A DNA stretch of 53,723 bases, from IMG/VR virus record IMGVR_UViG_3300000317_000004, positions 1 through 53,723 of that record. One strand, written 5' to 3'. The notes under the pieces are model-generated. The model was not told the origin of the DNA. It saw only the letters and a program-made list of their open reading frames with translations, and searched no databases. Shown here in pieces: positions 12,031-53,723 of this stretch (position 1 is its first letter; each line of letters begins with the position of its first letter). This DNA comes from a virus (lineage: Duplodnaviria > Caudoviricetes). A program made the translations under genes and the position numbers.

Positions 12031-12199
12031 ATAATTACACAGTCAGTTTTTTCGATATATCCGTTTGCCGATGGACAGAAATACTCGTCCATCAGGCCGG
12101 GCACCTCTTCCACGTCGAATTCTTTACCTATTTTATCGGCATACCAATAATCCGGTTTGCTCACTGATACTATTTTTACCCTTAACTCCTTCACGTACA

Positions 12200-12442: not shown

Positions 12443-12459
12443 GCAACCCTCACTTTCTT

Positions 12460-12759
12460 TTAATGTTTAGCCGTTAATAGGCATGATCTTTTTCCGCAAG
12501 TAAAACCAAATCCCGGAGGACATATTTTTGATCCGGGAAGAAAATCCTTGCAGGGTATTGTTTTTTCTTGCTCTTGAATAGGGTCTTCTTTGATAATTTC
12601 GCAACAGTCAACAAATATTATTTTGTTATTATATTTTTTATTTTTGTCAACTATATAAAACGCTCCCCCGTCCTTAAAAGCGTCAGCATTAAAAACGTGA
12701 CCGATTAAATCTTTATACCAACAACTATAATTTGACAATTTAGTTATTTTTATTTTCAT
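12460..12759 (-). CDS. Hypothetical protein
   Basis: MKIKITK....WY.D.IG..F phage motif. Confidence 0.7.
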   Translation of the reverse strand: MKIKITKLSNYSCWYKDLIGHVFNADAFKDGGAFYIVDKNKKYNNKIIFVDCCEIIKEDPIQEQEKTIPCKDFLPGSKICPPGFGFTCGKRSCLLTAKH

Positions 12760-20613: not shown

Positions 20614-20704
20614 TTTATTTTCCTCCTGATTTAATTGTTTTGTTTGCCTGGATTTGAGACCGCCGCCGCCGCATTACAGCCCCGAAGGGCTGCTCTCTGC
20701 GTTT

Positions 20705-27712: not shown

Positions 27713-27766
27713 AAAAGGCCGCATTGACAGACAGATTAAACACTGTTTGCCGATGTGGCCTTTTTT
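27713..27766 (+). terminator. Stem-loop with U-tract (terminator/attenuator)
   Basis: AAAAGGCCGCAT...ATGTGGCCTTTTTT. Confidence 0.65.
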
Positions 27767-27775
27767 ATTTTGATT

Positions 27776-29479
27776 ATGGACATAAAAAAACTCATATCAG
27801 AACTTCCAGTAGACGATAAAAGAACATTGTCCGCCTTTGCTGCGGCACTGGCCGACGCTGGAGCGGATGAGTTCGTTACGGTTAAAGAACCGAATTTGCC
27901 CAACCTGTCTTCCGCAGCAGTCATTCTTGTGCCTAACGGGCAAGAAGGAGAAAAAGAGCCCCGCCCAGTTGCAAAACCTGCGCCTATTGCTGCAAAGACA
28001 TACGATTTCACCGGGAATATAGTTTTCTTTGGGTTTGGAGGAGTTGCGGAATGCACATTGCCTGTATTGTTAAGACATATAAACGTTGATCCCTCAAAAA
28101 TAACCATTGTAGATATGCTTGACAAGTCTGAAGTACTTAAAGACTGGGTGGAAAAAGGTATAGTTTTTGTTCAAACTCAAATTGTTGAAAAAAACCTTAA
28201 AGACATACTGAAAAAATACCTTAAAGAAGGTGATTTTTTAATTGATGTTTGCTACGACATTGCTTGTTCGGAACTTTTACAATATTGCAAAGACAATAAA
28301 ATTTTTTATATAAACACATCCGTAGAAGAGTGGAATTATATAGACGGTTTTGATAAAAGAACCCCATACGAAAAAAGCCTGTATTCTCGCCAACAAGAAA
28401 TTGACGCTTTAATACAATCATGGGATGAAAACGACGGTGTTACTGCGATTCTTGATATGGGAGCAAATCCCGGATTAATTTCTCATTTTATGAAACAAGG
28501 ACTTGTTGACCTTGCAAAATCTCAAAAGGTCGGGACTAAAACCACGAACCGAAACGATTATGCCACGCTTGCAAAAGATTTGGGAGTTAAGGTTGTTATT
28601 GACAGCGAAAGAGATACTCAAATACTTATACGGCCTAAAGAGGTCGGTGAATTTGTTAATACCTGGAGCGTACTTGGCCTTGTAGAGGAAGCTAAAAGCC
28701 CGGCAGAACTTGGATGGGGAACGCACGAAGACGAAATTCCTGAGCATGCAACTGTACCGAAAAAAGGGCCTAAAAATCAAATCTTTTTATCACAAATGGG
28801 TATGCATACGTTCATGCGGTCGTTTGTTCCTGCCGATCCAAAAATTCCGCTTAAAGATGGCGAAGTTTCTGTTGATGGCTATGAAATAGTTGGCTGTCTT
28901 ATACGTCACGGTGAAGCATACACTATAAGTAAATTTTTAACAACAGAAGACGGTTCTTATCGACCGACTGTTTATTATTGCTATTTACCAAGTGACGCAA
29001 CAGTGGCTTCATTGCGCGAGTTTGCAAGCCAAAACTATTGTAAAGATAATGATTATAAGCCGTTGCGACAAAGAATAATGTACGAAAACGACATACTGAG
29101 CGGTTCGGATACATTAGGGGCAATGTTGGGTGGATATGATGATACTCATGTCTGGTGGTGCGGAACTTCTTTAAATATTGAAGATGCGCGAGTTCTTGCC
29201 CCATTACAAAACGCAACAACAATACAGGTTGCGATAGGGCTAACGGCTGGGATATGTTGGGCGCTTGAAAATCCTCAGAGCGGAGTGGTTAGGCCGGAGG
29301 ATTTAGATACTGAATTCGTGTTAAATATTGCCAAACCATATTTAGGAACATTTATAAGTCAAGAATATGAATGGTCACCGATTAAAAATTATATAAACCA
29401 GTATTCGGAACGAACAGACAACAATATTGACGAAACAAATATATGGGGAATTCAAAATTTTTCCTTTAAAAACACTTAA
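27776..29479 (+). CDS. hss: Homospermidine synthase
   Basis: Rossmann GFGGVA, YINTSVEEW, LYSRQ, GANPGLISHF, SERDTQ, FVNTWS..GL.EE...PAELGWGTHE, IRHGEA, YRPTVYY.Y.P, NATTIQVA. Confidence 0.9.
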   Translation: MDIKKLISELPVDDKRTLSAFAAALADAGADEFVTVKEPNLPNLSSAAVILVPNGQEGEKEPRPVAKPAPIAAKTYDFTGNIVFFGFGGVAECTLPVLLRHINVDPSKITIVDMLDKSEVLKDWVEKGIVFVQTQIVEKNLKDILKKYLKEGDFLIDVCYDIACSELLQYCKDNKIFYINTSVEEWNYIDGFDKRTPYEKSLYSRQQEIDALIQSWDENDGVTAILDMGANPGLISHFMKQGLVDLAKSQKVGTKTTNRNDYATLAKDLGVKVVIDSERDTQILIRPKEVGEFVNTWSVLGLVEEAKSPAELGWGTHEDEIPEHATVPKKGPKNQIFLSQMGMHTFMRSFVPADPKIPLKDGEVSVDGYEIVGCLIRHGEAYTISKFLTTEDGSYRPTVYYCYLPSDATVASLREFASQNYCKDNDYKPLRQRIMYENDILSGSDTLGAMLGGYDDTHVWWCGTSLNIEDARVLAPLQNATTIQVAIGLTAGICWALENPQSGVVRPEDLDTEFVLNIAKPYLGTFISQEYEWSPIKNYINQYSERTDNNIDETNIWGIQNFSFKNT

Positions 29480-39703: not shown

Positions 39704-42700
39704 AATAAATTATGCCATAGAAATTTATACCGATATAGGGGACGCAGATCATACCCCTATGGCGTTAACTAATACCGATATAGGATTACAGAACGGTGTA
39801 TTCCGTTTTGTATCAGGCAGGCCAAAATATGACGGCTCTACAGTTGTTCCTAAATATGGCGCAAGCGAAATTGATATAAACGGAAACAATGTAAGCAATC
39901 AGAACAATACTAATATTTATTACGAAGGATTTTTGCAAAAAGACGGAATTACGTCGAATCCTTCAAACGAAATTGATTTAAGTCAGACTGGAGATGTTGC
40001 AACTCTTAGTAGCCTTGAATTTATTGTATCAAACTGCAATTCGACAGGATTACAATTTGCAAATCAATGCAAAACAGATGAAATTTTATTTATTGGAAGA
40101 CGAGTAAGATTATTAATTTTTATTGACAATGTGATTTACAGTAGATGGGTAGGGGCTATAGACAACAACCCGTACGACGAGGTTGATTTCCATTTTTCTT
40201 GTGGGTTTGATGATTCTGTTTACAAAACAATGCCGCCGAAAATAATAAATTCTGTGACTTTCCCAAACACCGGAATCGGTTCTCAAAAGTCTTCACAAAT
40301 ATCAATAGTTGGGGCTGTTTCTTCGGCTTCAAATATACCGGCAAATGCGACAAGTGAAAGCAATCCGCTGCCTATTTGCTTTGGAGACATTCCCTATGCT
40401 CAGATGTTCAACGTGGAGGGTATTCCACAATTTGAGAAAATAGCTTATTCATCTTATTTGTCTGCATATTCAAAAGTCGCACCAGCGTTACAATCAAGCA
40501 ACGGCTCAGGTACTATAGATGATGACTATATATATTCAACAAATTTGTCTGTACAAAGTTTTAACCCTCATCCATCAAGTGATTTTAGATGGTGCCCAGG
40601 ATCACAGTTTTTTCCTCCAAGAAGCTTATATATATTTGTCAACAATACTGCGACTGGAGGCATTGGGTTTAATAAGCGTTTTGATGATTGGGTTTACATG
40701 TTGGCAATACCCTATAAAGACCTTTCAATATCACATCCGGTGACAGGATCAAGTGGAGACGTCTTTACAATGTCAGCAACCGAAAAGCGCGATTCATACG
40801 CTTTTCCCTATGATTATTTTAAGGATTATTATGTTTTTAAAGTAAACGATACAGAGGGTTATAAAGTAGTAAATAGTTACTCTACATGGCTATATTACGA
40901 ATATGATGAAACAAGCCATACTGGGCGAAGCTGTTACGCTTTATTTCTTGCCCTTGCAAAAGCCCCTGAAAGTTTTGATACGAATAATATGCTTGCTTCT
41001 ATTGTAAAGGGCTATACCCCTGTCGATGTTCTTGACTATGGCAAGCCGGTTTCTGGTTCGGACACAATATTTTTCATGCTTGGGAAAAGTAAGGTCAAGC
41101 AGGTTGTTTCTAATTTCAGGATTATTAGCTATACTTCAAGATTGATAAACGGCATTGTACCAATTGCTGGAATACCAGTGCTTAGAAGTTATTCAAGCGA
41201 TCAAAAAGTATATAACGATGTTTCGGGCATGGTTTCGGAAGCTAACGTTATAGGAGATTCAACAAACGGAGGAATAAAATTTCCTTATTTGCAACTAAAA
41301 GCCGCATCTGAAATACAGGAAAACGGAGTCTCTTTATTAACTCCAATTGTTTTGACAAAGGAATGTATATCAAATGTAGAAACCTGTCAATTAATACCTG
41401 ATAGCACAACAACCGTTACAAAGTCAACAGCAATAACAACACGAAGCCTTACTGATGCTCAAAAAGAAATTTTAATTGATAGAGACAGGACGACATCTCT
41501 TGAAATAGCGATACCTGGAATAAGTGTTCCGCTTGCATTAGATAGCGGGGCATCTACGACAACAATATATGTTGATACTGACCCGTCAACATTTATATAT
41601 AAAACAGGATCAAGTGGCGACGTTGTTGTTGTTGGAGATTATACAGAAGGATTTACAAATGGACGTGTTGTTATGGATTATAGTACAACGCGCGGCACTA
41701 ACGGCTATTATTCTGTTGATCTTGATGATAGCGTAACTGATAAAACCGTGGCAAATGGAGCAGTATTGATGATACAATACGTAGACGGAATATCAGCTCG
41801 CGGGCAATGTGTAACTTTCGGAATTGACATGACTTCACTTGTTGATATTGATGTAGAAAAAGCATATTTTGGAATTGATTTTATAGCAACAACTCCGCAT
41901 GGAGGAATAGCTTCAGTTGGGAACTCACTTAAGCACCTATCTTTTGGTATTTCGTTTCGACTTCAAGACCAATACGGTCGAGATGTTGAACTTGACAGTT
42001 CTGACAGATTGGATTTACGTGACCCGTTGGGCAATATACTTATATTGACAAAAGACCAACAAAATGGAGTTGCGGCTTATAATCCAACATGGAACTTATT
42101 GCCTGATGATTATTACGAATGCGGGGGAAATACAAACAGTGAGACCAATAGATTTTCAATTTCCTCGTATAGTGATGATAGTTCAAGCAATGCTTTTGGT
42201 GAAATTGATTTTACAACAGTACTGTCATTAATAAAAACACGAGTTGCAACTCCAATTCTATATGTTGATTTTTATGTTATAGGATCTTCTGTTGATGTCG
42301 GAGAGTCTACAATTAAGCCCACTTATCCTGTAAACGTAAATCTAAAAATTAAACAAATAGGTTTTGTTGCGCAAAGATCAATTTCGACGGAAAACAAGGC
42401 ATTATATACCGAAGTAAAGGGAGAAACAATTGGGAATAACGGCACTACGGCAACCAACACGGTATATACAGCAATCCGGCATATTCTTGAGGATTATGAC
42501 AAAATTCCGTCCGCACTTATTTCTTACGGAAATCTTGATTCCACGCGCGACGCGACGCATTCGTGGTATATCGGAAGACAAATTTTAGAACGTAAAAGCA
42601 GCTTGGATTATTTAAAAGAACTTTGTCAGCAAGCGTTTATTGGATATTTTATATCACGCTCTGGTAAACATTCATTTTCGGCATGGAGAGAAAATAAAGC

Positions 42701-43544
42701 TACGTCAATAACATTTGACGAATCTACTATTGTCAGGGGCAGTATAAAGGACTGGAAAAAGACGGATATTTCGTCAATGTTTAACGATTTTAATTTGCAA
42801 TATAACAACAATCCCGGCCTTGGCAAGCTTGATAAAAATATTATCTTAACTCATATAGATGACGCGGAACCTGATGTTACAATAACGACTACGCCGACAC
42901 ATTACCCCGGAGATGGATTCCCGGTAATCGGATGTATAGATACAGACGGAATACCGCTATGGAAAAAATACTGTAGCTTTCCCGGAATCCCTACCACTCC
43001 TATTTCTGCAATCGCGGAGCCGGTGAGCTCAGAAATAGGTGATAGCTATTATGCTGAGGCAACAACAACCCATTGGACTACTGGAAATTATTATGTATGG
43101 CATGGTACGGCATGGGTAGCCAACGAGTATCCCGCCGCGTATACAGCGGCAAGTACGCTTTGGGCTGCTTGTCACGAGTCCTGGATTAAATTTTTTATAG
43201 TAAATCAAGCGTCCGGAACATTAACATCTCTCAACTGGTATCAAGACAGATCAGTTTTATCCGATTTGACAGAAGCTGCGAAAGGCGTTGGAGTTTACAG
43301 CTCTGCATATATGTTTTTACAACAGATAATTGGATGGCTGACAGATCAAAAAGACACGGTAACTTTTTCCGTTCCAATAACCGTTGCTTCCGCTCAATAT
43401 GATTTACTTATGCCGGTATATTTTTCTGATTATGTTTATACTTACGATGTTGCACGATTTGGATGGATAACCCGAATTGAGCCGAACTTTAATGATACCG
43501 ACAACGCTGTTTTTAACATATCTTTAATACTTGACGTACAATAG
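39696..43544 (+). CDS. Tail tip/baseplate hub protein
   Basis: 1282 aa; P.PI.FG motif; position. Confidence 0.65.
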   Translation: MPKINYAIEIYTDIGDADHTPMALTNTDIGLQNGVFRFVSGRPKYDGSTVVPKYGASEIDINGNNVSNQNNTNIYYEGFLQKDGITSNPSNEIDLSQTGDVATLSSLEFIVSNCNSTGLQFANQCKTDEILFIGRRVRLLIFIDNVIYSRWVGAIDNNPYDEVDFHFSCGFDDSVYKTMPPKIINSVTFPNTGIGSQKSSQISIVGAVSSASNIPANATSESNPLPICFGDIPYAQMFNVEGIPQFEKIAYSSYLSAYSKVAPALQSSNGSGTIDDDYIYSTNLSVQSFNPHPSSDFRWCPGSQFFPPRSLYIFVNNTATGGIGFNKRFDDWVYMLAIPYKDLSISHPVTGSSGDVFTMSATEKRDSYAFPYDYFKDYYVFKVNDTEGYKVVNSYSTWLYYEYDETSHTGRSCYALFLALAKAPESFDTNNMLASIVKGYTPVDVLDYGKPVSGSDTIFFMLGKSKVKQVVSNFRIISYTSRLINGIVPIAGIPVLRSYSSDQKVYNDVSGMVSEANVIGDSTNGGIKFPYLQLKAASEIQENGVSLLTPIVLTKECISNVETCQLIPDSTTTVTKSTAITTRSLTDAQKEILIDRDRTTSLEIAIPGISVPLALDSGASTTTIYVDTDPSTFIYKTGSSGDVVVVGDYTEGFTNGRVVMDYSTTRGTNGYYSVDLDDSVTDKTVANGAVLMIQYVDGISARGQCVTFGIDMTSLVDIDVEKAYFGIDFIATTPHGGIASVGNSLKHLSFGISFRLQDQYGRDVELDSSDRLDLRDPLGNILILTKDQQNGVAAYNPTWNLLPDDYYECGGNTNSETNRFSISSYSDDSSSNAFGEIDFTTVLSLIKTRVATPILYVDFYVIGSSVDVGESTIKPTYPVNVNLKIKQIGFVAQRSISTENKALYTEVKGETIGNNGTTATNTVYTAIRHILEDYDKIPSALISYGNLDSTRDATHSWYIGRQILERKSSLDYLKELCQQAFIGYFISRSGKHSFSAWRENKATSITFDESTIVRGSIKDWKKTDISSMFNDFNLQYNNNPGLGKLDKNIILTHIDDAEPDVTITTTPTHYPGDGFPVIGCIDTDGIPLWKKYCSFPGIPTTPISAIAEPVSSEIGDSYYAEATTTHWTTGNYYVWHGTAWVANEYPAAYTAASTLWAACHESWIKFFIVNQASGTLTSLNWYQDRSVLSDLTEAAKGVGVYSSAYMFLQQIIGWLTDQKDTVTFSVPITVASAQYDLLMPVYFSDYVYTYDVARFGWITRIEPNFNDTDNAVFNISLILDVQ

Positions 43545-43554
43545 AAAAAAAATT

Positions 43555-43866
43555 ATGAAAAGATACGTAAAAATAGGTAAACATACAAAAAATCAGGAAT
43601 TTGCTGACGTTTTCAGCTACGACAAGCACGGTCGAATTACAGTTGGGGTAGACAATACAACAACAACGATTAACACGGTTACTCGGCAAATTACTACAGT
43701 GGCGGGAAGTTATTCCGGATACATTCCGCCCTATGCGTCGGCTCCAGCAGCAATATCAACGTATCATCAGATGTGGTACGATACGGTTAATAACTGTTAT
43801 AAAATAACAGCATCAACACAAGCCGGAAGCGGAACAAAACAAGTGCTTATTACTGATCCTGAATAA
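43555..43866 (+). CDS. Hypothetical tail-associated protein
   Basis: P...P......QMWYDT pattern. Confidence 0.55.
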   Translation: MKRYVKIGKHTKNQEFADVFSYDKHGRITVGVDNTTTTINTVTRQITTVAGSYSGYIPPYASAPAAISTYHQMWYDTVNNCYKITASTQAGSGTKQVLITDPE

Positions 43867-43887
43867 TATTTTAAAGGGAAGGAAATT

Positions 43888-46467
43888 ATGGCAAAAAAAT
43901 ATTTGTTTTTACTGTGGATACTGTTGGCGGTACAGATTCCGCAAGGGCTGACCATGAATCCCCTGTCGGCATTTAAAGGATTGATGGTTCGGGACTCTCT
44001 TGTCGATTCCGGAGTGATAAAAACAAAAACCCTTATCATCCAGTCGCCCCATCATGCGGACACGACTGGCGTAGACACGTTTTTTTGCAAAAAGAAAGAT
44101 ACTGTTTCTTATTTGTCACGAGCAGAAATGAAATCACTTGTAGGCGGTTCTGGTGGAACTTCTGATTCTGGCTGGAATGGCTTTGTCAAAGGCACGAATC
44201 AGTCTGTTCGACTTATTTCTTATGACACAGGAAAAACTGTGATACTCGAAACGCTTGTCGGGACTACATGGAGTTATGCCGGATTTAAGTGGGAAATAGG
44301 AAACAATTTGCCAAGCGTACCTTCGTCCGGAAACTATCGGGTTTCAAACGTTTATGTTACTACGGATTCTTCGCTTGTTGTCCAGTATTCTACAGGCACA
44401 GACATCTATACTACAATAATAAGAGACACGGCTTCACATGATACATCTGGCCATGGATCGCTATGGGCGGCATTAGGTGCAAAGCGCGACACGTCCGCGC
44501 ATGACACAACCGGTCACGGCGCGTTAAATACCGCAATAGGAACAAAATTGACAGCGGTAATATCTTCTCCGGTAGCCGAACAAATTATAAAATACGATGG
44601 CAGTAGTTGGGTAAACGGGAACGCAAATCCCGTGAGCGCTGGAGCCGGAATTGAACTATGGGGAACGCAAACCATATCTGATATATCGCCATATTATAAT
44701 TTTTCCAATACGCCAATTTCGGCAGCGGAGGAAATTTTTACTACGGTTGTAAACAATAATGAGGTATTGATTGCCGGAATAATCAACCCGGCAGGAACCA
44801 GCATCACAACGCTGGATGCCGGGCGCTGGGTATTGCACGGATGGGGATATGCCAGTTTAATAGGAGCGCGGTTTATTGCCAAAATTTATAAACGCTCTGC
44901 TGCCGGATCTGAAACACTTTTATTTAGTGTAAATGGGAATATACTTGGAACAACCCTTGGGCAAGAAGATAAGGAAAGTGTGCAACCGGAATATACACTT
45001 GCATCAACGGACAGGTTATTAATCAAACTGTACGCTCAAACAGATAGTACGCATGACATTACTGTGTACTATTATGACTATGGAACGGATCATTATACTT
45101 TTATTTCCACGCCGCTTACTACTGGACATAATTTTTTAAAAGGTGTACAGGGTGGAAAAACAGGTCAATATTATCACGTGGATAGTGCCTGTTATTACAC
45201 ATTGACTCGCACGGATACAACCGGAGTAATTATCAACCGCGTTGGCACATTAGGCATAGTTGATTCCGTAGCTCATGCAAAAACGGCAGTTACGGCAACC
45301 ACGGCAGGAACGGTTACCACAAACGCAAATTTGTCTGGCGTTATAACAAGCGCCGGCAATGTGACATCTGTTGGCACATTGACCACGGCAGCGGTCCCGG
45401 ATGCAACTAACTACCGATATTGCACGGACGCGCAAAAAACCGTAATCGGAAACACTTCGGGAACAAATACCGGCGACGTTACGTTGGCAACCAACAACGG
45501 ATTGAGCCTATCAAGCCAGATACTTGCTATGGGCACGCCAAGCACGCTTACGGCAACAACAACCAATGCGGTGACCACAACTACCCATACGCACGCGATA
45601 ACGCCTTCGCCGTCTCTCGTTGGCGTTGGAACGGCGCAATATCAATACCTCGTTACTGGCGCAAGCCCTTATACGCCTGTGTGGAGTTCGGGGTTGCTTA
45701 ATATTCCGACAGGCTCAAGTTTAATTCTTTCCGGCGCATATTCCCAGACTTTCACGGCGGCGGCGGCGACGGCAGCTTCTTGGCCTACTGCCGGTGGAAC
45801 TGTGTACATACCCAACAATCCGCTGACTACTATAGGCGACATCATGTATGGTACAACAACAGCAACGCCATCAGTTACCGGGCGGCTTGCTGCGGGCGCC
45901 CGTGGAACTGTTATATGCGGCAATGGCGCGGGAGTTTTACCGACCTATGCTGCCGGCAGGATTGTGAGAAATGCCTACTCGACCACTTCGCAGACCTTAA
46001 CGGCGGCAACATTGACGCTTATTGCCGGCACGCAATTCAATTTTACTGCCGGCGACTTGGCAATCGGAACGCATTTCCGATGGAAAATATCATTGACCAA
46101 AACCGCAGCCGGAACTGCATTGAGTACGTTTTATGTCAAATTTGGCACGCTTGGAACGACTTCAGACGGTACAGTTTTGACGTTTATCAAAAAAGCCGGA
46201 ACAGGGGTTGCTGACACCGGACATGTTGATATTGATTGCATTGTCAGGGGGCCGATCTCATCCTCATGCATTGCAATCGGGCATTTTACTTTGACACATA
46301 CGTTGGCATCAACCGGATTTGCCACTACTGCAAATTGTGATGTAGAGTCGATTTCCAGTACATGGACGGCAACAACTCCGACGTACGTTGAAGTCTGTGC
46401 CACAACCGGAGCGTCGGACGCTTATACAATCGCATTGGTCGAATCTGAAGCATATAATTTACCATAG
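43888..46467 (+). CDS. Tail-fibre-like protein 1 with signal-peptide-like N-terminus
   Basis: T/G/S-rich; IKYDGSSWVN, TTNANLSG, NTSGTNTGD, LTTIGDIMYG fibre motifs. Confidence 0.7.
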   Translation: MAKKYLFLLWILLAVQIPQGLTMNPLSAFKGLMVRDSLVDSGVIKTKTLIIQSPHHADTTGVDTFFCKKKDTVSYLSRAEMKSLVGGSGGTSDSGWNGFVKGTNQSVRLISYDTGKTVILETLVGTTWSYAGFKWEIGNNLPSVPSSGNYRVSNVYVTTDSSLVVQYSTGTDIYTTIIRDTASHDTSGHGSLWAALGAKRDTSAHDTTGHGALNTAIGTKLTAVISSPVAEQIIKYDGSSWVNGNANPVSAGAGIELWGTQTISDISPYYNFSNTPISAAEEIFTTVVNNNEVLIAGIINPAGTSITTLDAGRWVLHGWGYASLIGARFIAKIYKRSAAGSETLLFSVNGNILGTTLGQEDKESVQPEYTLASTDRLLIKLYAQTDSTHDITVYYYDYGTDHYTFISTPLTTGHNFLKGVQGGKTGQYYHVDSACYYTLTRTDTTGVIINRVGTLGIVDSVAHAKTAVTATTAGTVTTNANLSGVITSAGNVTSVGTLTTAAVPDATNYRYCTDAQKTVIGNTSGTNTGDVTLATNNGLSLSSQILAMGTPSTLTATTTNAVTTTTHTHAITPSPSLVGVGTAQYQYLVTGASPYTPVWSSGLLNIPTGSSLILSGAYSQTFTAAAATAASWPTAGGTVYIPNNPLTTIGDIMYGTTTATPSVTGRLAAGARGTVICGNGAGVLPTYAAGRIVRNAYSTTSQTLTAATLTLIAGTQFNFTAGDLAIGTHFRWKISLTKTAAGTALSTFYVKFGTLGTTSDGTVLTFIKKAGTGVADTGHVDIDCIVRGPISSSCIAIGHFTLTHTLASTGFATTANCDVESISSTWTATTPTYVEVCATTGASDAYTIALVESEAYNLP

Positions 46468-46475
46468 GAGGAGCT

Positions 46476-49187
46476 GTGAGAAAGCTACTATTTTTTGTCG
46501 GATTTTTTATTTCGTTGGGAATGGCAATGGCGGGGTCGTCCGACACGGATTCCCTTGTTGTTGTCGGAGGAGCTACTATCAATCGAACGCATTCACATTT
46601 CGTGGACGCGGATTCAATCGGAATCTCACAGACAAAAAATGCGGGTAGTAGATGCGATTCCGTGGCTGTAATTAAAGATCAAAAATTGAGATTTAGAACG
46701 TTGACAGAGCTTGCAACCGACTTGGGGGGAATAGCCGGTGATTCTGTGCGAGCGGCGTATAAATCGGATACTACTATCCGGGCAAAAGAGGCGTGGCTTG
46801 CATTCACGGCTTACTATGCAGACTCGTGTTTTAAGGCCGATTCCTGCCGGATTGCTTTACGAGCACATAGTGCAGATACATCCGATACCTGCAAAGGCGG
46901 CGCGGCAAGGGCGGTGCAATGGAACGGCAAATCTATGCCGTCCACGACTACGGATGGAACATTATACAATACAGCAGGAACACTCTCTTGGAATAATTTG
47001 TCATTGATATATCAGCCGCTTTCGTCGATTCTTACTTCAGTCGCGGCGCTTTCCGGTAGTTCAACCGGCTTGATAAAGTTGACCAATGGCACGGCCAGTC
47101 TGGATGCAACGGCCTACGGAACCGGCTCTGTGACCAGTGTTGCCATGACGGTCCCGACGGGACTGACCATTTCCGGCAGTCCGATAACTACTTCGGGGAC
47201 GTTGGGCTTGAGTTTAACGAGTGGATACAGTATACCGACGACCGCAAATCAAACTAATTGGAGCAGCGCGTACACATTTACCAGCGGGTTTACAACGAAT
47301 TACCCGGATCTGGTAGCCATTGAAGCATTGACGGGAACTGCTGGGTTTTTGAAAAAAACTGCGACCAATACGTGGGCGTTGGATAACTCCACGTACTTGA
47401 CGGGTAATCAGACAATTACGTTGTCGGGAGACATATCCGGTTCAGGGGCGACGTCAATAACCATGACACTGCCGACTATAAATAGTAATGTTGGGACATA
47501 TCAGGGCATTACTGTTAATGCAAAGGGTCAAGTGACGGCAGCAGCAAATCAGAGTTATCTGACCGGCAACCAGACCATAACCCTGTCGGGCGATGTTTCA
47601 GGGAGCGGTACAACAGCAATCACTGCGACGCTGGCAAACAGCGGAGTAACTGCCGGAACGTATGGCGCGTTGACAGTTAGCGCGAAGGGGCTGGCTACCA
47701 GCGGAACGACAATCTGCCCGGTTGCAAACGGGGGGACGGGGTTGTCGTCGCTTGGCACTGTGGGCACGGCTATGCTGGCGTTCACAAATTTAAACGCAGG
47801 ATTTCTGAAATGGAGCGGAAGCGCGTTGAGTATTGATATGACTACATATCTCACCTCTGCAACTGGGGCTCCCCTAATACACGGCTGTTCGGCGGGATAC
47901 ATACCATACGCCACGTCAACGACGGCGTGGGGGAATAGCCCGATGTATTACAATGGAACCAACATAAAATTGACCGACTCTTATGCGGGAGACAATGCGT
48001 CATTTATTATATCATCAAGCGGAACATCCAACGAGAATGGAAAATATAGAGGGTTGAGTATATGGACACAGTCAACAAATGTCACTACGCCATACGAAAC
48101 AACCAGGTTAACATCATATTGGTCGTCAACAACCTCGGAATCAACGAAATTTACAATTGCTCAGCGTGGCTATGGGGGAAACTTATATGATGTGTTAACA
48201 ATATTAGGCAGCGCATCGACAAGTGCAGCTTCTCCGGCTGTCGGCATCGGCACGACGAGTCCAGTGAGGGCGGATAATGCAGCAGTAACTTTTCAAATTG
48301 GCGACAGAAATGTAATCCAAAATACGGTTGGATCTCAAACCAATATATCTAACAATGCGTACTATGATGGGACGAGTTGGAAATATATTGTATCCGACTA
48401 CGCAATGTCAATTAGGATGAACGGCTTGGGAAACACAGGTACGACGCCAGGTGCTATAACTTTCACCTGTTCACCGTCTGGGGCTGCGGGAGCCTCAATA
48501 ACTAATCACGACGGTTCAGATGTAAGGATGGTAATCCTTAACAATGGCAACGTCGGCATCGGCACGACGAGCCCGACGAACGGCAAATTAGACGTTGAAA
48601 CAACCTCAGGCTATGCGATATATGCGTATAGTTCCGGATCAGGAACATCTGCGATTTACGGCACGGCGACAAATTCTGGAGCTGTTGGAATAACTGGCGT
48701 GGGCAATAGTGCGGGAGTTTGGGGAACTGGGACAACGTATGGCGTAGGTGGAGAGGGCAACGTCGGCGTGTATGGATCATCATCTGCGAGCAATGGGACA
48801 GGTGGATATTTTACAAATAGTAACAGCACTGGCGGAACTGGCATTTATGGTTCGGGATTCAATTACGGTGTGAGAGGTGTTTGTACAAGCACGTCGGGTT
48901 ACGCCGGATATTTTGAGGGTCATACTGGGCGCAACGTAACTGTGAAATCTCCCTCCGCAGCATATACGCTTAATGTTGCGTCTGAAACTTCGGATGTTTT
49001 TGTTTTTACAACAGCATACACTGTTACAATGGGAACGGGCAATAATAACGGGGACATTGTGTATATTGTCAACGCTTCGGGGAGTCTTTTTACATTACAA
49101 GGATCAAGCCGCTACGGAACCGTTTATAACGGAAGTTGCGCGGCTTGTACTTATTACAGCGGCGCATGGTATATTATGTTTTATTAA
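46476..49187 (+). CDS. Tail-fibre-like protein 2 with signal-peptide-like N-terminus
   Basis: GTGSVTSVA..VPTGL.ISGSPITTSGT, YLTGNQTITLSGD x2, GNVGIGTTSP, Gly-rich GVYG repeats. Confidence 0.8.
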   Translation: MRKLLFFVGFFISLGMAMAGSSDTDSLVVVGGATINRTHSHFVDADSIGISQTKNAGSRCDSVAVIKDQKLRFRTLTELATDLGGIAGDSVRAAYKSDTTIRAKEAWLAFTAYYADSCFKADSCRIALRAHSADTSDTCKGGAARAVQWNGKSMPSTTTDGTLYNTAGTLSWNNLSLIYQPLSSILTSVAALSGSSTGLIKLTNGTASLDATAYGTGSVTSVAMTVPTGLTISGSPITTSGTLGLSLTSGYSIPTTANQTNWSSAYTFTSGFTTNYPDLVAIEALTGTAGFLKKTATNTWALDNSTYLTGNQTITLSGDISGSGATSITMTLPTINSNVGTYQGITVNAKGQVTAAANQSYLTGNQTITLSGDVSGSGTTAITATLANSGVTAGTYGALTVSAKGLATSGTTICPVANGGTGLSSLGTVGTAMLAFTNLNAGFLKWSGSALSIDMTTYLTSATGAPLIHGCSAGYIPYATSTTAWGNSPMYYNGTNIKLTDSYAGDNASFIISSSGTSNENGKYRGLSIWTQSTNVTTPYETTRLTSYWSSTTSESTKFTIAQRGYGGNLYDVLTILGSASTSAASPAVGIGTTSPVRADNAAVTFQIGDRNVIQNTVGSQTNISNNAYYDGTSWKYIVSDYAMSIRMNGLGNTGTTPGAITFTCSPSGAAGASITNHDGSDVRMVILNNGNVGIGTTSPTNGKLDVETTSGYAIYAYSSGSGTSAIYGTATNSGAVGITGVGNSAGVWGTGTTYGVGGEGNVGVYGSSSASNGTGGYFTNSNSTGGTGIYGSGFNYGVRGVCTSTSGYAGYFEGHTGRNVTVKSPSAAYTLNVASETSDVFVFTTAYTVTMGTGNNNGDIVYIVNASGSLFTLQGSSRYGTVYNGSCAACTYYSGAWYIMFY

Positions 49188-49217
49188 GCTATTTTTAATT
49201 TTTTCAAGGGAGGTTTT

Positions 49218-49562
49218 ATGCGGTTTTTTTTCGGTCTTGTATTGATTGCGGTTTTGGCTTCGGGTTGCTTTGGAAAAGATTCAACTGCGGTTAAACCGCC
49301 TATCAAACCACCTGCTCCGGTTGTCGCTGCCCATGCCATGGTCAATGATACCACGATTGACCAGTTTCCGCTTCCACAGGGCGCGTTAATAGTGAGTCAC
49401 GATAGTATGGCTCACGTGACGTATATTGATACTATCAACAACGTTCGAATAGATGATTATTTTCAGAACAAGAATAAAAATACGGAGTCTGTAGTAGATG
49501 GGAAACATTATTCCGTGTTCAAGGCGGTGAAGAAATTTATCAATTGGGAGTTGGTAAAATGA
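49218..49562 (+). CDS. Exported protein/possible lipoprotein
   Basis: MRFFFGLVLIAVLASGC lipobox-like; Pro-rich linker. Confidence 0.6.
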   Translation: MRFFFGLVLIAVLASGCFGKDSTAVKPPIKPPAPVVAAHAMVNDTTIDQFPLPQGALIVSHDSMAHVTYIDTINNVRIDDYFQNKNKNTESVVDGKHYSVFKAVKKFINWELVK

Positions 49563-49688
49563 TTACATTTATTATTATTTACTTTTGCGTAATATTTATA
49601 GCCACTGCCATATTTCACCTTTTCGTAAATGGCAAGGCTAAAGATAAAAACAACTTTAAGGATTGGATAGATTGAACCGGAGGTAAAT

Positions 49689-50105
49689 ATGTACTTTCTC
49701 AGACATTTTGCTCCGTGGGAGTTTGTCCCCCGGATTTTTTACGAGAAAATGGGGACAGACTGCTTACAACTTGTGAACACGGTTATGCTTGCCACAGCAG
49801 ATGATCTTCGAGACTATTTCAGCAGGCCGGTTGTATGCAATAACTACCTCGGCAGCGGAACAAATGAATACCGTGGATTCCGCCCGGCATTTTGCACTGT
49901 GGGTGCGGCTGAGTCTATGCACCGGATCGGCGGGGCATTAGACCTCACCATACAGGGAGTATCGGCGGAAGAGGCACGGCAAGCAATCCTGAAGCATTCG
50001 GACAAGTTTCCATACATCACCCGTATGGAATCAGGCGTGGACTGGCTGCATATTGATAATAAGAAAACCAATGTTGAACGAATCACACTTTTCAAGGCGA
50101 CATAA
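49689..50105 (+). CDS. Endolysin, peptidase M15 family
   Basis: RGFR....GA..SMH..G.ALD...WLHID zinc ligands. Confidence 0.85.
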   Translation: MYFLRHFAPWEFVPRIFYEKMGTDCLQLVNTVMLATADDLRDYFSRPVVCNNYLGSGTNEYRGFRPAFCTVGAAESMHRIGGALDLTIQGVSAEEARQAILKHSDKFPYITRMESGVDWLHIDNKKTNVERITLFKAT

Positions 50106-50285
50106 ATGGATTTAAACCGTGCAGTAAAATTAAGATTTCGAGAAAATAACATGCTGAAAAGTCAAGGACTTGATATTGATAGTTTGATTAAGCAACGGGA
50201 AAAACTAAAAGCTATTAACGTCACAAATTGTTACCCTGAAGAGCATGAAGAGGAAATCGAAAATTAAATAGAAAGCGAAAAGACC

Positions 50286-50549
50286 ATGGCAACATCAACA
50301 GCTATAGAATTGGCAATAGATCAAGCTATAGACGAGCATATTGATAAATGCAAACAGGAACTTCCGTCAAAATTTATCATGTGGCGATGGCTTGTACCTA
50401 TTTTAATTGGAGCAATTACTGTAGTTGCCGGAGCAACATTATGGGTATCTGATCGTTTTGGAAAAGTTGAGAATCGTATGACGGCTATTGAGACATCAAC
50501 TAAATATGTAGCAGATAGAATTGACGAAGCGATAAAGTTGAAAAAATAG
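50286..50549 (+). CDS. Single-TM coiled-coil protein (holin/lysis-associated)
   Basis: TM helix then ENRMTAIET; follows endolysin. Confidence 0.5.
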   Translation: MATSTAIELAIDQAIDEHIDKCKQELPSKFIMWRWLVPILIGAITVVAGATLWVSDRFGKVENRMTAIETSTKYVADRIDEAIKLKK

Positions 50550-50576
50550 CAACTTATAAATCTGATCCTTTTTTAC

Positions 50577-50601
50577 AAGGGCGGCTTTGGTCGCCTTTTT
50601 T
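50577..50601 (+). terminator. Intrinsic terminator ending late operon
   Basis: AAGGGCGGC-TTTG-GTCGCCTTTTTT. Confidence 0.75.
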
Positions 50602-50626
50602 ATTTTGAAGAAATAATAAAAATAGT

Positions 50627-50655
50627 TTGACTCTTTTTATTTTATACATTATATT
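50627..50655 (+). promoter_or_regulatory. Sigma70-like promoter upstream of cassette array (Pc-like)
   Basis: TTGACT-17-TATATT, ATG 8 nt downstream. Confidence 0.75.
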
Positions 50656-50662
50656 TAATATT

Positions 50663-50914
50663 ATGAAAACAAAAACAACGAATATTACTGTGCCAATTCA
50701 GGTTCCGATCACAACAACAGTGGCTTTGAAACGGTTGGCATTATTAGTATCGGAAAAAGCCGGAACGTGTAATCGGAATTCAGTCGAGACCGGAACCGGA
50801 AAATCTATCAGTCATGGATATAATCATGCGTTGCTATTAGCAGCAAAATATTATGGATTAGTCGATTTGACAAAAATTGATGGTTGGTATAGTCAATATA
50901 AATCAAGGGTTTAA
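50663..50914 (+). CDS. Probable leaderless small DNA-binding (RHH-like) protein
   Basis: TVPIQVP.....ALKRLA strand-helix pattern. Confidence 0.55.
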   Translation: MKTKTTNITVPIQVPITTTVALKRLALLVSEKAGTCNRNSVETGTGKSISHGYNHALLLAAKYYGLVDLTKIDGWYSQYKSRV

Positions 50915-50978
50915 CATTATATGTTTCGCACTTGATGTAGTTGTACGCAATTGTCACCTTTTGAGTTTAGGAGTTTTT

Positions 50979-51221
50979 ATGCTTTGCGACGATATAAAAG
51001 TTATCGATTTTTTACACGACCGTGATTTTTTCCCAGACGACAATGGTGCATGGGGGCGCATAAAAAAGGTTTTGGAAGCGGTGCCAACATGCGCACAACA
51101 CACGCAGCCTACAAAGTGCCTTGGATGTGAGTATTGGCAAGGTTTACATGGTAATATTTGCATTCGTGGCAGCTCCGATCAGTATTGCGTTAAAGTCGGC
51201 ACTCAGCAGGCGGGTGCGTGA
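50979..51221 (+). CDS. Cassette 1 hypothetical protein; Cys-rich tail encoded by hairpin
   Basis: AGGAG RBS; cassette 50941-51225. Confidence 0.75.
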   Translation: MLCDDIKVIDFLHDRDFFPDDNGAWGRIKKVLEAVPTCAQHTQPTKCLGCEYWQGLHGNICIRGSSDQYCVKVGTQQAGA

Positions 51222-51231
51222 AACGTTGTAA
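51093..51231 (+). repeat. attC-like site 1
   Basis: GCACAAC-A-CACGCA-GCCT..AGTGCC ... GGCACT..AGGC-GGG-TGCGTG-AAAC-GTTGTAA. Confidence 0.85.
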
Positions 51232-51288
51232 GAAATAAACCAGCCATTTTAAATTATTATGGCGGCTCACATAAACGAAAGGTTTGTA

Positions 51289-51633
51289 ATGGAACAGTCT
51301 AAGATCGCCCGCATTTGTCACGAAGTTAATCGTGCTTACTGTCAATCAATAGGGGATTTTTCTCAGCCCTCTTGGGACGAAGCTCCTGAGTGGCAAAAAA
51401 GTTCAGCTGTAAACGGTGTTCAGTTCCACATTGATAATCCAGATGCACCGCCATCGGCATCACATGACTCTTGGCTTAAACAAAAAGCGGAGGAAGGTTG
51501 GAAGTATGGGGCTGTGAAAAATCCCGAAACTAAGGAACATCCTTGTTTTGTTCCCTACGAACAGTTGCCAGTCGAGCAGCGGGCGAAAGATTTCATATTC
51601 ACCAGTATTGTAAACGAGCTTAAAGCCGCCTAA
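51289..51633 (+). CDS. Cassette 2 RyR-domain protein
   Basis: H.SW...K...GWKYG.VK....KEHPC.VPYEQLP..QR.KD; cassette 51226-51718. Confidence 0.85.
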   Translation: MEQSKIARICHEVNRAYCQSIGDFSQPSWDEAPEWQKSSAVNGVQFHIDNPDAPPSASHDSWLKQKAEEGWKYGAVKNPETKEHPCFVPYEQLPVEQRAKDFIFTSIVNELKAA

Positions 51634-51656
51634 TTTGCGGAAGGCTGGTTTACATC

Positions 51657-51724
51657 TTACAACAGGCGCGTTACGTTCGCTTCGCCAATAGCAAGGCTAC
51701 TGCGTAACACGCCGGACGTTGTAG
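51657..51724 (+). repeat. attC-like site 2
   Basis: TTACAAC-A-GGCGCGTTACG ... CGTAACACGCC-GGAC-GTTGTAG. Confidence 0.88.
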
Positions 51725-51755
51725 TCAATTGTCAAGCGCAAAGAAAGGATATTAT

Positions 51756-51986
51756 ATGCCCGCCGAAAAATTGAAACCGTGTCCATTCTGCGGAATGAAA
51801 CTTGTTTTTCAATTAAATGGTTGGTGGGCGCATCCTGCTAATTATGGGTGTGTTTGTCCCATAGACGGTTTGCGTGTGGACGATAATACTACCTCAATCG
51901 AGGCATGGAATCGGCGGGCGGACATTAGAGAATGCGCTTGCCAACAGCCTACAACAGCCGCAGCCCAAAATACGGCAGAACATTAA
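51756..51986 (+). CDS. Cassette 3 Lar-like restriction alleviation protein
   Basis: LKPCPFCG ... C..C ... IEAWNRRA; cassette 51719-52033. Confidence 0.75.
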   Translation: MPAEKLKPCPFCGMKLVFQLNGWWAHPANYGCVCPIDGLRVDDNTTSIEAWNRRADIRECACQQPTTAAAQNTAEH

Positions 51987-52039
51987 GGATTATTGAATTT
52001 GATAGGCCGTACTTCGGGCAAGTGCGGCAAACGTTAGAG
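51949..52039 (+). repeat. attC-like site 3
   Basis: CTACAAC-A-GCCGCA-GCCC-AAAA-TACGGC ... GCCGTA-CTTC-GGGC-AAG-TGCGGC-AAAC-GTTAGAG. Confidence 0.9.
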
Positions 52040-52097
52040 GCAATATTTCTGCCAATATAAATTATAGGCGGGCGCGAAAACCAATAAAGGAGGAATC

Positions 52098-52541
52098 ATG
52101 GAATTAACAAGCAGCAACGTTGATACAGTATTAGAAGATTGCCTATTTGATCACAAGCCGAGCGATGCGGAAAAGATTTCTTCTCCATCGGCTGACGGGA
52201 TTATGGCAACATTTCACTTTGACCCAAAGAAACTTTCTATCCACAAAGAAGATATATGTTCCATGCTCGCCGAATTACCGGACGCTTTTCAACAGGACGG
52301 TGGCGGAGGTATGTCATTTTTAAACGCCTGCATAACTCGCAGCGGCAACCAGTGGGGCGAGCATAGAAGTATAGATTTACTTTTTATGTTAGGCATGGCA
52401 ATCGGAAAAGTGAAATGTTGCTTTTCAAGAGAAATGTGGAATACTCTTCCTGGCGGGATGCCGTATTACGTAGTTCTTAAAGACGCGCCCGCAGAAAAGC
52501 AAGGAATGGCAGAAACACAGCCTCTAACAGCGGTAGGCTAA
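52098..52541 (+). CDS. Cassette 4 conserved phage hypothetical protein
   Basis: AGGAGG RBS; LP..F....GGG.SFL.AC....G.QWG.H...W..LPGGMPY; cassette 52034-52594. Confidence 0.8.
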   Translation: MELTSSNVDTVLEDCLFDHKPSDAEKISSPSADGIMATFHFDPKKLSIHKEDICSMLAELPDAFQQDGGGGMSFLNACITRSGNQWGEHRSIDLLFMLGMAIGKVKCCFSREMWNTLPGGMPYYVVLKDAPAEKQGMAETQPLTAVG

Positions 52542-52600
52542 AATGCCGGTTAGCAATATGCGGTCTTACGGCACTTCAGCCGTACCGCAACACGTTGTAC
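52522..52600 (+). repeat. attC-like site 4
   Basis: CTCTAAC-A-GCGGTA-GGCT-AAAA-TGCCG ... CGGCA-CTTC-AGCC-G-TACCGC-AACAC-GTTGTAC. Confidence 0.9.
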
Positions 52601-52632
52601 AAAAGTTTTAACGCTTTTATTAAGGAGTTTTA

Positions 52633-52893
52633 ATGCGCGTGTACGACATACAAATAGTGGATGAGCATATCTGTGCCACTGATCCGTCACAAAAGGTGTT
52701 GGACTCATGGGTGCGCATTAAAAAGGACGCTGCGGAGGCGTCAAAACCTTCGCACAACGTTCGCGATTATGCGGCGGCGCTTCGTGTACTTCACGAATAT
52801 CGTGCTTTGCCAACTACCAGTGGTGTTTCGACACTTTTTGATAGCTGGGTAAGGCAGCGCCTCAATTCGGCCAAAGCGCCGAACTGCGCATAA
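52633..52893 (+). CDS. Cassette 5 hypothetical protein, translated through hairpin
   Basis: AAGGAG RBS; cassette 52595-52902. Confidence 0.75.
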   Translation: MRVYDIQIVDEHICATDPSQKVLDSWVRIKKDAAEASKPSHNVRDYAAALRVLHEYRALPTTSGVSTLFDSWVRQRLNSAKAPNCA

Positions 52894-52908
52894 TCGCGAA
52901 CGTTGTAT
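52752..52908 (+). repeat. attC-like site 5
   Basis: GCACAAC-GTTCGCGATTATGCG..CGGCGCTT ... AAGCGCCG..CGCATAATCGCGAAC-GTTGTAT. Confidence 0.88.
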
Positions 52909-52960
52909 GCAATTTGCAAACCTTCTGAAATTATAGGCCGCGCCAAGAAAGGATAAAGAC

Positions 52961-53281
52961 ATGCTTGCAGAATATCAGGCGCAGAATCAAACCGATGAGA
53001 ACGGCAACCCCACGGGCGGCAGCGTTCGAGGAACTGGGCTCGCGGTCGATTGGCAAAACGGCCCCCTGGGTCGCGGCGAAGATCGGAAGGAACCGAACGG
53101 TGCATTTGTCGAGACGGTTATTGATGCCGCCCGGCAGCGTATCGAGTTTTATCAAGCCTCACAGTTTAAGTGTCGCGAGAATGCCATCGCTATCACCAAG
53201 CTGGAAGAGGCGCTTCTTTGGCTTAACAAACGCACGGCTGACCGCGAGAAGCGGAATGTCGAAGGCGAGCACAAAATCTAA
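52961..53281 (+). CDS. tad1: Cassette 6 Tad1-family anti-Thoeris nucleotide sponge
   Basis: WQNGP...NG....VI.....RI..YQ...F.CRENA.AITKLEEALLWL..RT.DR..RNVEG matches the Tad1 C-terminal signature as I recall it; cassette 52903-53341. Confidence 0.82.
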   Translation: MLAEYQAQNQTDENGNPTGGSVRGTGLAVDWQNGPLGRGEDRKEPNGAFVETVIDAARQRIEFYQASQFKCRENAIAITKLEEALLWLNKRTADREKRNVEGEHKI

Positions 53282-53323
53282 AACCAAGAGGCGCGGCGGG
53301 ATAATGCGGAAGGTTTGCAAACA

Positions 53324-53347
53324 GCACACGTGCGGCAAACGTTGTAT
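53324..53347 (+). repeat. Internally deleted attC-like site 6
   Basis: GCACAC joined directly to GTGCGGC-AAAC-GTTGTAT (same right end as site 3). Confidence 0.75.
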
Positions 53348-53382
53348 GCAATGCCTGCCGAACCATGTTATAGGAGGCGCAC

Positions 53383-53723
53383 ATGACAAACGAGCAGTTT
53401 AGGTCTCTCCGTCGAGGCAATGTTATACGTGAGGGTTGTTCTGGTACGGCTTACGTCGTAGACGCGCACTATGGTGACTTCGTAATAGCTATGAAATCGA
53501 TGCACGTCAGTAACCCTTCAGAATGGGAATTGTGCGCCTCTGAAAACAGTGGAGCGGTTGCGCTTGATGATGTTCGGGCTATTGTTTTTGGTCGCGGGGA
53601 TAGTGTTACCAAAATGAAAAAAGTGCAAGATCTAAATTATGTTACCGACAGAAATCTTTCCGATGACTTCTGGTCAATCAGGGGGGGGGGGTGGAGTAAT
53701 GGAATAAGTAATTTTATATTTTG
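53383..53723 (+). CDS. Cassette 7 ORF, continues across origin to TGA at 60-62 (119 aa)
   Basis: GGAGG RBS; open frame MTNEQFRSLRRG...NPSEWEL...RGGGW through the G11 tract. Confidence 0.65.
   Translation, partial: MTNEQFRSLRRGNVIREGCSGTAYVVDAHYGDFVIAMKSMHVSNPSEWELCASENSGAVALDDVRAIVFGRGDSVTKMKKVQDLNYVTDRNLSDDFWSIRGGGWSNGISNFIF
53681..53723. repeat. Terminal overlap identical to 1-43
   Basis: Exact match. Confidence 0.97.

Follow-up and report, generated by a model that had tools for sequence, protein, structure and literature searches.

We showed that the genome of a tailed soil phage carries two arrays of short single-gene units, whose ends are complementary to their own beginnings rather than to the units that follow them. 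This genome, the IMG/VR virus record IMGVR_UViG_3300000317_000004, was analysed over its full length of 53,723 bases, which is referred to below as the window. We consider, with a probability of about 0.7, that the units are mobile single-gene cassettes of a phage-borne integron-like system, for which the recombinase is supplied in trans, most probably by an integron-type integrase of the host. Each unit opens with a GTT core and is typically closed by an imperfect palindrome (the hairpin site), which contains a left core and ends in the right core that opens the next unit.

Footprint of the cassettes

A first-pass annotation, made from the sequence alone, had claimed that the left core resembles the core which opens the same cassette and not the one that follows it, and our comparison bore this out for all seven intact sites of the window (own core nearer in 7/7). 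When the left cores were aligned with the reverse complement of the own opening 7-mer, four of the seven were exact, two had one mismatch and one had two mismatches. The complementarity extends beyond the cores: when the 17 nt to the left of this core were compared with the reverse-complemented start of the same cassette, five of the seven sites agreed at 12-13 of 17 positions (the nine other starts gave 1-10 of 17), and the two sites outside this pattern contain a 1-nt indel and a 26-nt insertion, respectively. Genome-wide, the reverse-complemented starts of cassettes 2, 3, 4 and 6 found their best match in the 3' arm of the same cassette, and this arm was tied for best in the case of cassette 5. 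Moreover, scripted circle junctions (own end joined to own start) fold 5.8-15.1 kcal/mol more stably than array junctions or junctions with a foreign start in 7/7 comparisons. Complementarity to the own start and a more stable own junction are both expected if each cassette had once been a circle with one long hairpin as its junction, which was later cut at the core.

The same pattern was examined in all the arrays that we collected (52 cassettes from nine arrays in eight records), with the left core picked from pairing alone. A hairpin was present in 45 of these 52 cassettes. The left core is exact for the own core in 29/45 sites and for the next core in none; 43 sites were informative, of which 37 have a left core nearer to the own core, one has it nearer to the next core and five are ties. 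With the pairings permuted 10,000 times, exact matches averaged 3.6 and peaked at 12, compared with the 29 observed. The outer arms behave likewise, as at least 11 of 17 positions fit the own start in 29/45 sites and the next start in 0/45. The cassette footprint is real and statistically strong.

Two phage records with attC sites served as positive controls, namely the array beside the annotated integron integrase of Shewanella phage M16-3, and the three-site cluster of Tetrasphaera phage TJE1, which belongs to the CALINs (groups of attC sites with no integrase). In both, the left core matches the own core (for TJE1, with cores at positions 2, 287, 1069 and 1513), and the detector therefore finds real attC cassettes. 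The same detector revealed no chained cassette footprint in MW202573, a phage with a published CALIN, and a looser pattern applied to the two control records gave matches at the control level. The short motif AACGTTRNA is not enriched in the window (8 observed vs 6.4 expected, five of the eight lying within the arrays), and significance therefore rests on clustering and structure.

Distribution of the cassettes among phages

A metagenome scan with the protein of cassette 1 yielded three contigs (L367, L368 and L369), which match the window at 92-96% nucleotide identity over cassette 1 only (blastn). The homology starts exactly at position 50940 in L368 and L369, and stops at 51228, inside the core at 51225, in L367. 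The flanks of cassette 1 in these contigs are other cassettes of the same build, and the array of L368 is preceded by about 1.9 kb of AT-rich DNA from a different backbone. Neighbouring cassettes differ and the breakpoints fall at the cores, within C-G-T-T-G, the exact bond being below the resolution of the comparison. The switch from own to next sequence is confined to one 4-5-nt interval in every case. Some cassette proteins belong to larger 90%-identity clusters than the backbone genes do: nine members for the Tad1 homologue of cassette 6 and six for cassette 1, against one for the endolysin of the phage.

Deletions of the inner hairpin, which fuse neighbouring cassettes, were found repeatedly: in cassette 6 of the window (53309-53340), in L367 at the junction into cassette 1 (781-790), and in L368 at the 3' end of cassette 1 (2700-2712). 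Such a deletion would fix the fused cassettes in place. Contig L369 also contains a chimeric cassette (165-464), the first 160 nt of which correspond to cassette 1 (96%), while its 3' part is similar to the end of window cassette 5 (73% over 92 nt).

These junctions bear on the proposal that the units are immobile, and that the hairpins and the complementarity of 5' and 3' ends are RNA-level regulatory structures of a paralogous gene family. Such structures would form in RNA too, cassettes 1, 5 and 9 appear to be related (by the chimera of 1 and 5 just described and by the similar openings of 5 and 9), and the open reading frames (ORFs) of these three cassettes run through the hairpins. We nevertheless regard this proposal as hardly credible: unrelated genes (those for the Tad1, Lar, RyR and phrog_26039 proteins) have the same ends, and the neighbours of a cassette change from contig to contig. 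The family of cassette 4 provides a further argument. A search with its single protein found nothing, and the family comprises 100 homologues and 80 viral loci; these 80 loci are devoid of such sites (2.27 detector matches per 53.7 kb vs a shuffle mean of 2.4).

We applied the detector, which requires a left core matching the own opening core, first to 3.35 Mb of fetched loci and subsequently to entire records. The same site type was found in five more viral records (G001-G005), with GC contents of 36-55%. G001 (61.8 kb, with terminal repeats, 54.6% GC) contains eight cassettes; G002 (34 kb, 94% complete, 43.6% GC) contains three, including a Tad1 homologue with an intact site; G005 (85.9 kb, 35.7% GC) contains about 21 over positions 40,982-49,700; and G003 and G004 have arrays of the same type. 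One site sequence stands 5' of four different cassettes (one in L369, two in G005 and one in G003), and a site 24-mer was detected in the viral collection only in G003, G004 and G005. All-against-all blastp revealed that the window has only cassette genes in common with G001, G002, G003 and G005, namely those for the Tad1 homologue (82-85%) and Lar (44%). Near-identical cassettes are common to phages of 36% to 45% GC, which points to homology-independent gene flow among unrelated phages. A search of the viral collection with the pattern TGCGGCAAACGTTRNA returned at least 120 stretches with one match each, which the detector placed at background; L137, one of these stretches, lies in the G005 array. 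Locus L025, with two cores, was discarded as a chance match.

The view that this is a viral cassette pool, which the first-pass annotation had preferred to a captured bacterial array, is upheld by the presence of the same cassettes and sites in unrelated phage records, by the breakpoints at the cores, and by the lack, in 185,579 species genomes, of two conserved markers (the site 24-mer and a 20-mer from cassette 1). An inert piece of a bacterial chromosomal integron, gained by the phage through illegitimate recombination, would be in line with the report of Qi et al. 2023 (PMC9892861) that phages carry host integron pieces. It would also agree with base composition, since the GC content of array A (47.4%) and array B (44.3%) exceeds that of the backbone (39.7%; whole window, 40.0%). 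This origin is nonetheless most improbable: the cargo is of phage type (the Tad1 family occurs at 64 viral loci and that of cassette 4 at 80), at least six viral records whose backbones are unrelated contain arrays of this type, and neither marker has an exact match in the species genomes.

Architecture of the sites

On the top strand, the sites are composed of an outer arm, a segment of 4 nt (in most cases CATC or CAGC), the left core nnnnAAC, an inner stem-loop, a one-sided bulge of about 3 nt and the right core GTTnnnn. AAC and GTT do not vary among the sites used, and the variable part is mostly GTAn or GGnn. The 4-nt segment outside the left core forms a conserved 2x2 internal loop, in which left-hand CATC (12 sites) is matched by right-hand GAAA (12 sites), and CAGC (7 sites) by GCAA (8 sites); this covariation outside the cores keeps two base pairs together with a constant A.A plus C.A mismatch. 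The bulge arises from the right spacer, which is 2-4 nt longer than the left one in 29/29 exact sites. Rfam models at the gathering threshold matched only abiF and Twister-P5 in the window.

Qi et al. give the inverse cores of attC as RYYYAAC on the left and GTTRRRY on the right, and the GTTRRRY consensus is only partly matched by sites of the present type, the right core of which is mostly GTTGTAn or GTTGGnn. The spacers of the control sites are mostly symmetric (2/2 or 3/3 in 7/8 sites), and their outer 17 nt match the own start at only 2-7 of 17 positions. The sites described here behave like attC on every tested point except canonical geometry. The claim of an integron-type cassette footprint therefore holds for the footprint itself and for an exchange point consistent with G|TT, but the sites depart from the canonical attC form.

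The well-defined structure of the sites also bears on a mechanism without any site-specific enzyme, in which short repeats would be shuffled by homology through the phage's own recombination functions. The phage does encode RecT (7954-8820) and an exonuclease (8830-9495; Pfam, PHROGs), and identical sites occur in several phages. There is also a precedent in the promoter-early stem-loop cassettes of T4-type phages (PMC2839356, PMC4122927), in which small repeated stem-loops flank non-essential phage genes; according to PMC2839356, recombination between them makes mini-circles. Those stem-loops contain a sigma-70 promoter and a terminator and recombine by homology, whereas the sites of the present arrays have neither a sigma-70 promoter nor a T-run terminator, and have a fixed exchange point. 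Adjacent sites have only about 6-10 nt in common, the own/next switch lies within a single 4-5-nt interval in every case, and the covariation preserves a defined loop and bulge, which points to recognition by a protein. For these reasons, we judge homology-driven shuffling to be very unlikely.

Source of the recombinase

The phage was said to lack a recognisable tyrosine recombinase, and a six-frame search of the genome with PF00589 indeed gave no match at E<=1, while the control genomes were recovered in 14/14 cases. Among the 91 ORFs of the window, Pfam and PHROGs revealed no integrase, resolvase or HUH transposase. Y1_Tnp had no match among the same ORFs either, and there is one hairpin per unit, so the arrays do not qualify as elements of the IS200/IS605 type. 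Nor do they represent a complete integron, given that the window has no intI gene beside an array.

An enzyme supplied by the host and acting in trans is the simplest reading of these data, and it would most probably be an integron-type integrase. This candidate is favoured because, in the experiments reported by Qi et al. 2023 (PMC9892861), IntI1 recombined 5/6 attC sites from virulent phages, and because an integron integrase can, according to the preprint of Loot et al., insert cassettes outside att sites, at secondary genomic sites.

A cycle of the following kind can be envisaged. A site-specific recombinase would cut the right core inside its invariant C-G-T-T, in agreement with the G|TT point of integrons. 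On excision, the end of a cassette would be joined to its own start, to give a circle with the complete hairpin as its junction; insertion into a further site of this kind, or into a secondary GTT site, would split the hairpin again. Such a cycle would explain why the left core and the outer arm match the first bases of the same cassette and not those of the next one. The enzyme, most probably a host tyrosine recombinase of the integron-integrase type and not a phage-encoded protein, may act on folded single strands during phage replication, and the arrays may have been seeded at secondary sites. They would then act as a reserve of accessory genes open to exchange, and several of these genes may counter host defence. 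The cassettes are presumably read through from an upstream promoter, with a TATAGG-type -10-like box in the leader as a possible promoter element for some of them.

Several observations weigh against this explanation. Seven of the 52 cassettes have no recognisable hairpin. The canonical geometry of attC is not found in the present sites, which have asymmetric spacers and outer arms that continue beyond the cores, and their recognition by a known IntI is consequently not assured. No integron integrase was found in any of the six array-bearing viral records (the window and G001-G005). The two markers gave no exact match in the species genomes, and no host array of this type is known. Furthermore, G001 has a tyrosine recombinase of its own, which is not of the IntI class and is located about 2.5 kb past the last recognisable core.

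The last of these observations introduces an alternative in which the cassette system is the same, but the enzyme is a dedicated, non-integron recombinase: either a divergent phage tyrosine recombinase like the one near the G001 array, or an unrecognised phage or host enzyme that reads the outer arms, the loop and the bulge. The G001 locus (L366, 6515-8148) contains an HTH_17 gene followed by the gene for a divergent tyrosine recombinase of 399 aa. The protein as such escapes Pfam, and no NCBIfam model matches it at E<=0.01, but the recombinase is genuine: PF00589 is found in 24 of its 31 homologues, and several sources call it an integrase. Its position near an array, the preservation of a site architecture across eight records that differs from the canonical controls, and the absence of the two marker sequences from every bacterial genome searched all speak for a dedicated enzyme. 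On the other side, the G001 recombinase has no counterpart in the window (best tblastn E 2.1), PF00589 has no match at E<=1 in G002 (94% complete) to G005, and the array-bearing phages have no backbone protein in common. Moreover, with the HTH_17 gene 5' of it, the G001 enzyme looks like part of a lysogeny module, of which this is the usual layout. We therefore hold a dedicated recombinase to be unlikely, and retain host-supplied integron-type integrase as the leading guess.

Whichever enzyme is used, the sites and the cargo allow a wider proposal, namely that phages have an integron-like capture system of their own, with distinct sites (outer arms, the A.A/C.A loop and the one-sided 3-nt bulge) and a phage-only pool that banks counter-defence genes, served by a dedicated enzyme or by a co-opted host integrase. 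We advance this proposal tentatively, as its chances appear to be slightly short of even.

A different kind of mobile element was noted in G005, in which a complete IS200/IS605 pair (Y1 transposase and TnpB; L381, 15852-17269) lies about 6 kb from the array, in addition to a lone TnpB-like gene (11276-12535). Both are located downstream of the array.

Organisation of the two arrays in the window

The ten GTT cores listed in the first-pass annotation were located as claimed, with the G of GTT at positions 50940, 51225, 51718, 52033, 52594, 52902, 53341, 1247, 1641 and 1883. Its suggestion that the array crosses the origin is borne out by a 43-nt terminal direct overlap of the window and by the direct terminal repeats under which the record is classed. 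Between the two runs of cores, arrays A and B, lie the terminal repeat and AT-rich DNA of about 1.6 kb. An ORF in this gap (90-416, + strand) matches phrog_839, a family to which a cassette-borne gene of G002 (L305:4509-4886) also belongs.

The count of nine cassettes had to be revised, as the arrays consist of eight bounded cassettes and two open-ended units (from 53341 and from 1883); the description of single-ORF units stands, each bounded cassette having one ORF, always on the + strand. The seven intact hairpin sites, of 68-157 nt, lie where they had been placed, and in a folding check with DNA parameters each of them folds on both strands (-11 to -48 kcal/mol).

The first core of array A (50940) is, as had been noted, not preceded by a closing hairpin site; it is, however, directly adjoined on its 5' side by an AT-rich imperfect palindrome of 41 nt (50899-50939, 74% complementary), which is possibly an ancestral secondary insertion site. 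Further upstream, a sigma-70-like promoter (TTGACT-17-TATATT, 50627-50655, + strand), preceded by a terminator-like hairpin at 50577-50598, is the likely outside promoter for array A.

Cassette 1 (50940-51224, core GTTGTAC) encodes an 80-aa protein of no family (ORF 50979-51221), and its 139-nt site (51093-51231) begins inside the ORF. Cassette 2 (51225-51717, GTTGTAA) contains a RyR-domain ORF (51259-51633) and a site of 68 nt (51657-51724), the left core of which, TTACAAC, corresponds exactly to the own core. The same exact correspondence is observed in cassette 3 (51718-52032, GTTGTAG), with an ORF for a Lar-like restriction-alleviation protein (51756-51986) and a 91-nt site (51949-52039, left core CTACAAC), and in cassette 4 (52033-52593, GTTAGAG), with an ORF of phrog_26039, a family of no assigned function (52098-52541), and a 79-nt site (52522-52600, left core CTCTAAC). 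Cassette 5 (52594-52901, GTTGTAC) encodes an 86-aa protein of no family (52633-52893) and has the longest site (52752-52908, 157 nt), with a perfect inner stem of 20 bp.

Cassette 6 (52902-53340, GTTGTAT) carries the Tad1 homologue (ORF 52961-53281). Its site, at the core 53341, had been described as deleted, and it has indeed lost the inner part, including the inner hairpin, but retains the outer arm (53309-53329) as well as the right end. The open-ended unit 7 (53341-53723, + strand) has the core GTTGTAT, a cassette-type leader and an ORF that starts at 53383 and enters the poly-G terminal repeat; we found no closing site from 53341 onward. This ORF reads through a run of 11 G, and its true end is uncertain.

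In array B, cassette 8 (1247-1640, GTTGTAG; ORF 1297-1638) is closed by a 140-nt site (1508-1647) with the left core CTACAAC, again exact for the own core. Cassette 9 (1641-1882, GTTGTAC; ORF 1674-1874) has an 85-nt site (1805-1889), in which the left core GCGCAAC differs from the own core by two mismatches. The last core, GTTACAT (1883-1889, + strand), has no matching arm anywhere in the genome, and a backbone gene (1910-2290) comes next.

Gene content and expression of the cassettes

The assignment of cassette genes to Tad1, Lar and RyR holds: Tad1 is supported by solved structures, and Lar and RyR by Pfam. Residues 45-105 of the cassette 6 product match structure 8kbb at E 6.4e-14, and PF24729 scores 27.9 bits against a cut-off of 27, by which the predicted protein is assigned as a homologue of Tad1 (Thoeris anti-defence 1). 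Tad4 is present in the array of G001. No PHROG family was found for 42 of the 47 cassette ORFs scanned from other arrays. The arrays may for this reason be regarded as a compact, self-delimiting list of candidate counter-defence genes.

Between positions 49000 and 53723, none of the promoter-like or terminator-like sites falls on a core or a hairpin, and the hairpins are without T-runs. A AAATTATAGGCGG-like box is common to five cassette leaders (51260-51275, 52058-52070, 52935-52950, 53366-53376 and 1283-1293), in some of them with TG 2-4 bases upstream, similar to an extended -10 element, and it also occurs in cassettes of L367 and G005. As a phage-wide promoter, the leader motif is not enriched (1 match vs 1.3 expected).

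Relation to known systems

Clusters of attC sites without an integrase have already been published for temperate and virulent phages by Qi et al. 2023 (PMC9892861), who report 17 CALINs and 21 phage records, including TJE1 with its three sites; our comparison with their set took in 3/21 records. The arrays described here resemble these CALINs in their co-oriented single-ORF cassettes, in their attC-type sites and in their occurrence in phages without an integron integrase. They differ in size, since the published clusters are small and those found here comprise up to about 21 cassettes, and in the outer arms, the conserved internal loop and the one-sided bulge (the TJE1 sites are of 50-60 nt, with symmetric spacers and no outer arms, the match there being 2-4 of 17). 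They also differ in the cargo (Tad1, Tad4 and Lar) and in having cassettes common to unrelated phages.

The likeness to bacterial integron cassettes comprises the nnnnAAC/GTTnnnn orientation, an exchange consistent with G|TT, variable hairpin length and promoterless single-ORF units; a left core equal to the own core is likewise a feature of the bona fide integron of phage M16-3. Unlike bacterial integrons, the present arrays have no intI and no recognisable attI, and their right cores are mostly GTTGTAn or GTTGGnn instead of GTTRRRY. In place of the symmetric central spacer of bacterial attC there is an asymmetric bulge of about 3 nt, and the palindrome extends 8-13 bp past the cores. The pool has been seen only in viral or metagenome contigs.

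Bacterial integrons, sedentary chromosomal and mobile, have been presented as banks of anti-phage defence cassettes (10.1101/2024.07.02.601686). In both cases, conflict genes are stored in cassette arrays, but in those integrons the arrays are bacterial, with defence genes beside an integrase, whereas here they are on the phage side and contain counter-defence genes. A second preprint (10.1101/2024.07.02.601719) reportedly treats the same theme of integron arrays as banks of anti-phage defence cassettes. Our results suggest a phage-side mirror image of such banks, in the form of exchangeable arrays that include Tad1, Tad4 and Lar; phages thus appear to maintain accessory and anti-defence genes in a store that can be swapped. 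A literature search, with most subscription journals outside its reach, did not turn up any account of counter-defence cargo in phage arrays, nor of attC, Tad1 and phage together. The kind of element is already known from phage attC clusters, and what appears to be new is the site architecture, the array size, the phage-only pool and the counter-defence cargo. The non-canonical architecture also raises a testable question as to what integron integrases, or another enzyme, can recognise.

The phage and other features of its genome

The completeness estimate of the record is 66. The 43-nt terminal repeat (region 53668-53723 and 1-43 of the window) opens with the run of 11 G. Only one sequencing run contains the stretch, and this run is probably its source; contigs from it span 49019-53723 unbroken at a depth of about 77 and the array has no internal joint, although contigs cannot reveal rare circles. 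Pfam and PHROGs, applied to the 91 ORFs, identified genes for a large terminase, portal, major head protein, tape measure and endolysin, as expected of a tailed phage.

No close phage relatives were found via the endolysin, and a query with the 859-aa tail protein gave 22 loci, all matching in one domain only and none a close relative; the best relative of the large terminase has 48% identity. Among GenBank phages, 20 records gave short matches to the RyR and Tad1 genes only, and a check of those loci brought up no array. A gene for a 574-aa homospermidine synthase-like protein with saccharopine dehydrogenase domains (27755-29479, + strand) lies within the block of head genes, and was uninformative as a clue to the host.

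The two RNA families detected by Rfam lie outside the arrays. A full-length abiF RNA motif (3559-3595, + strand; 51.1 bits vs a gathering threshold of 37) is located downstream of an ORF at 2903-3550, and a type-P5 twister ribozyme (20648-20701, - strand; 38.3 vs 37.6 bits) is placed between two minus-strand early genes. Finally, the DNA polymerase III alpha gene of G005 (L381, 17454-19727) contains an intein-like insert.

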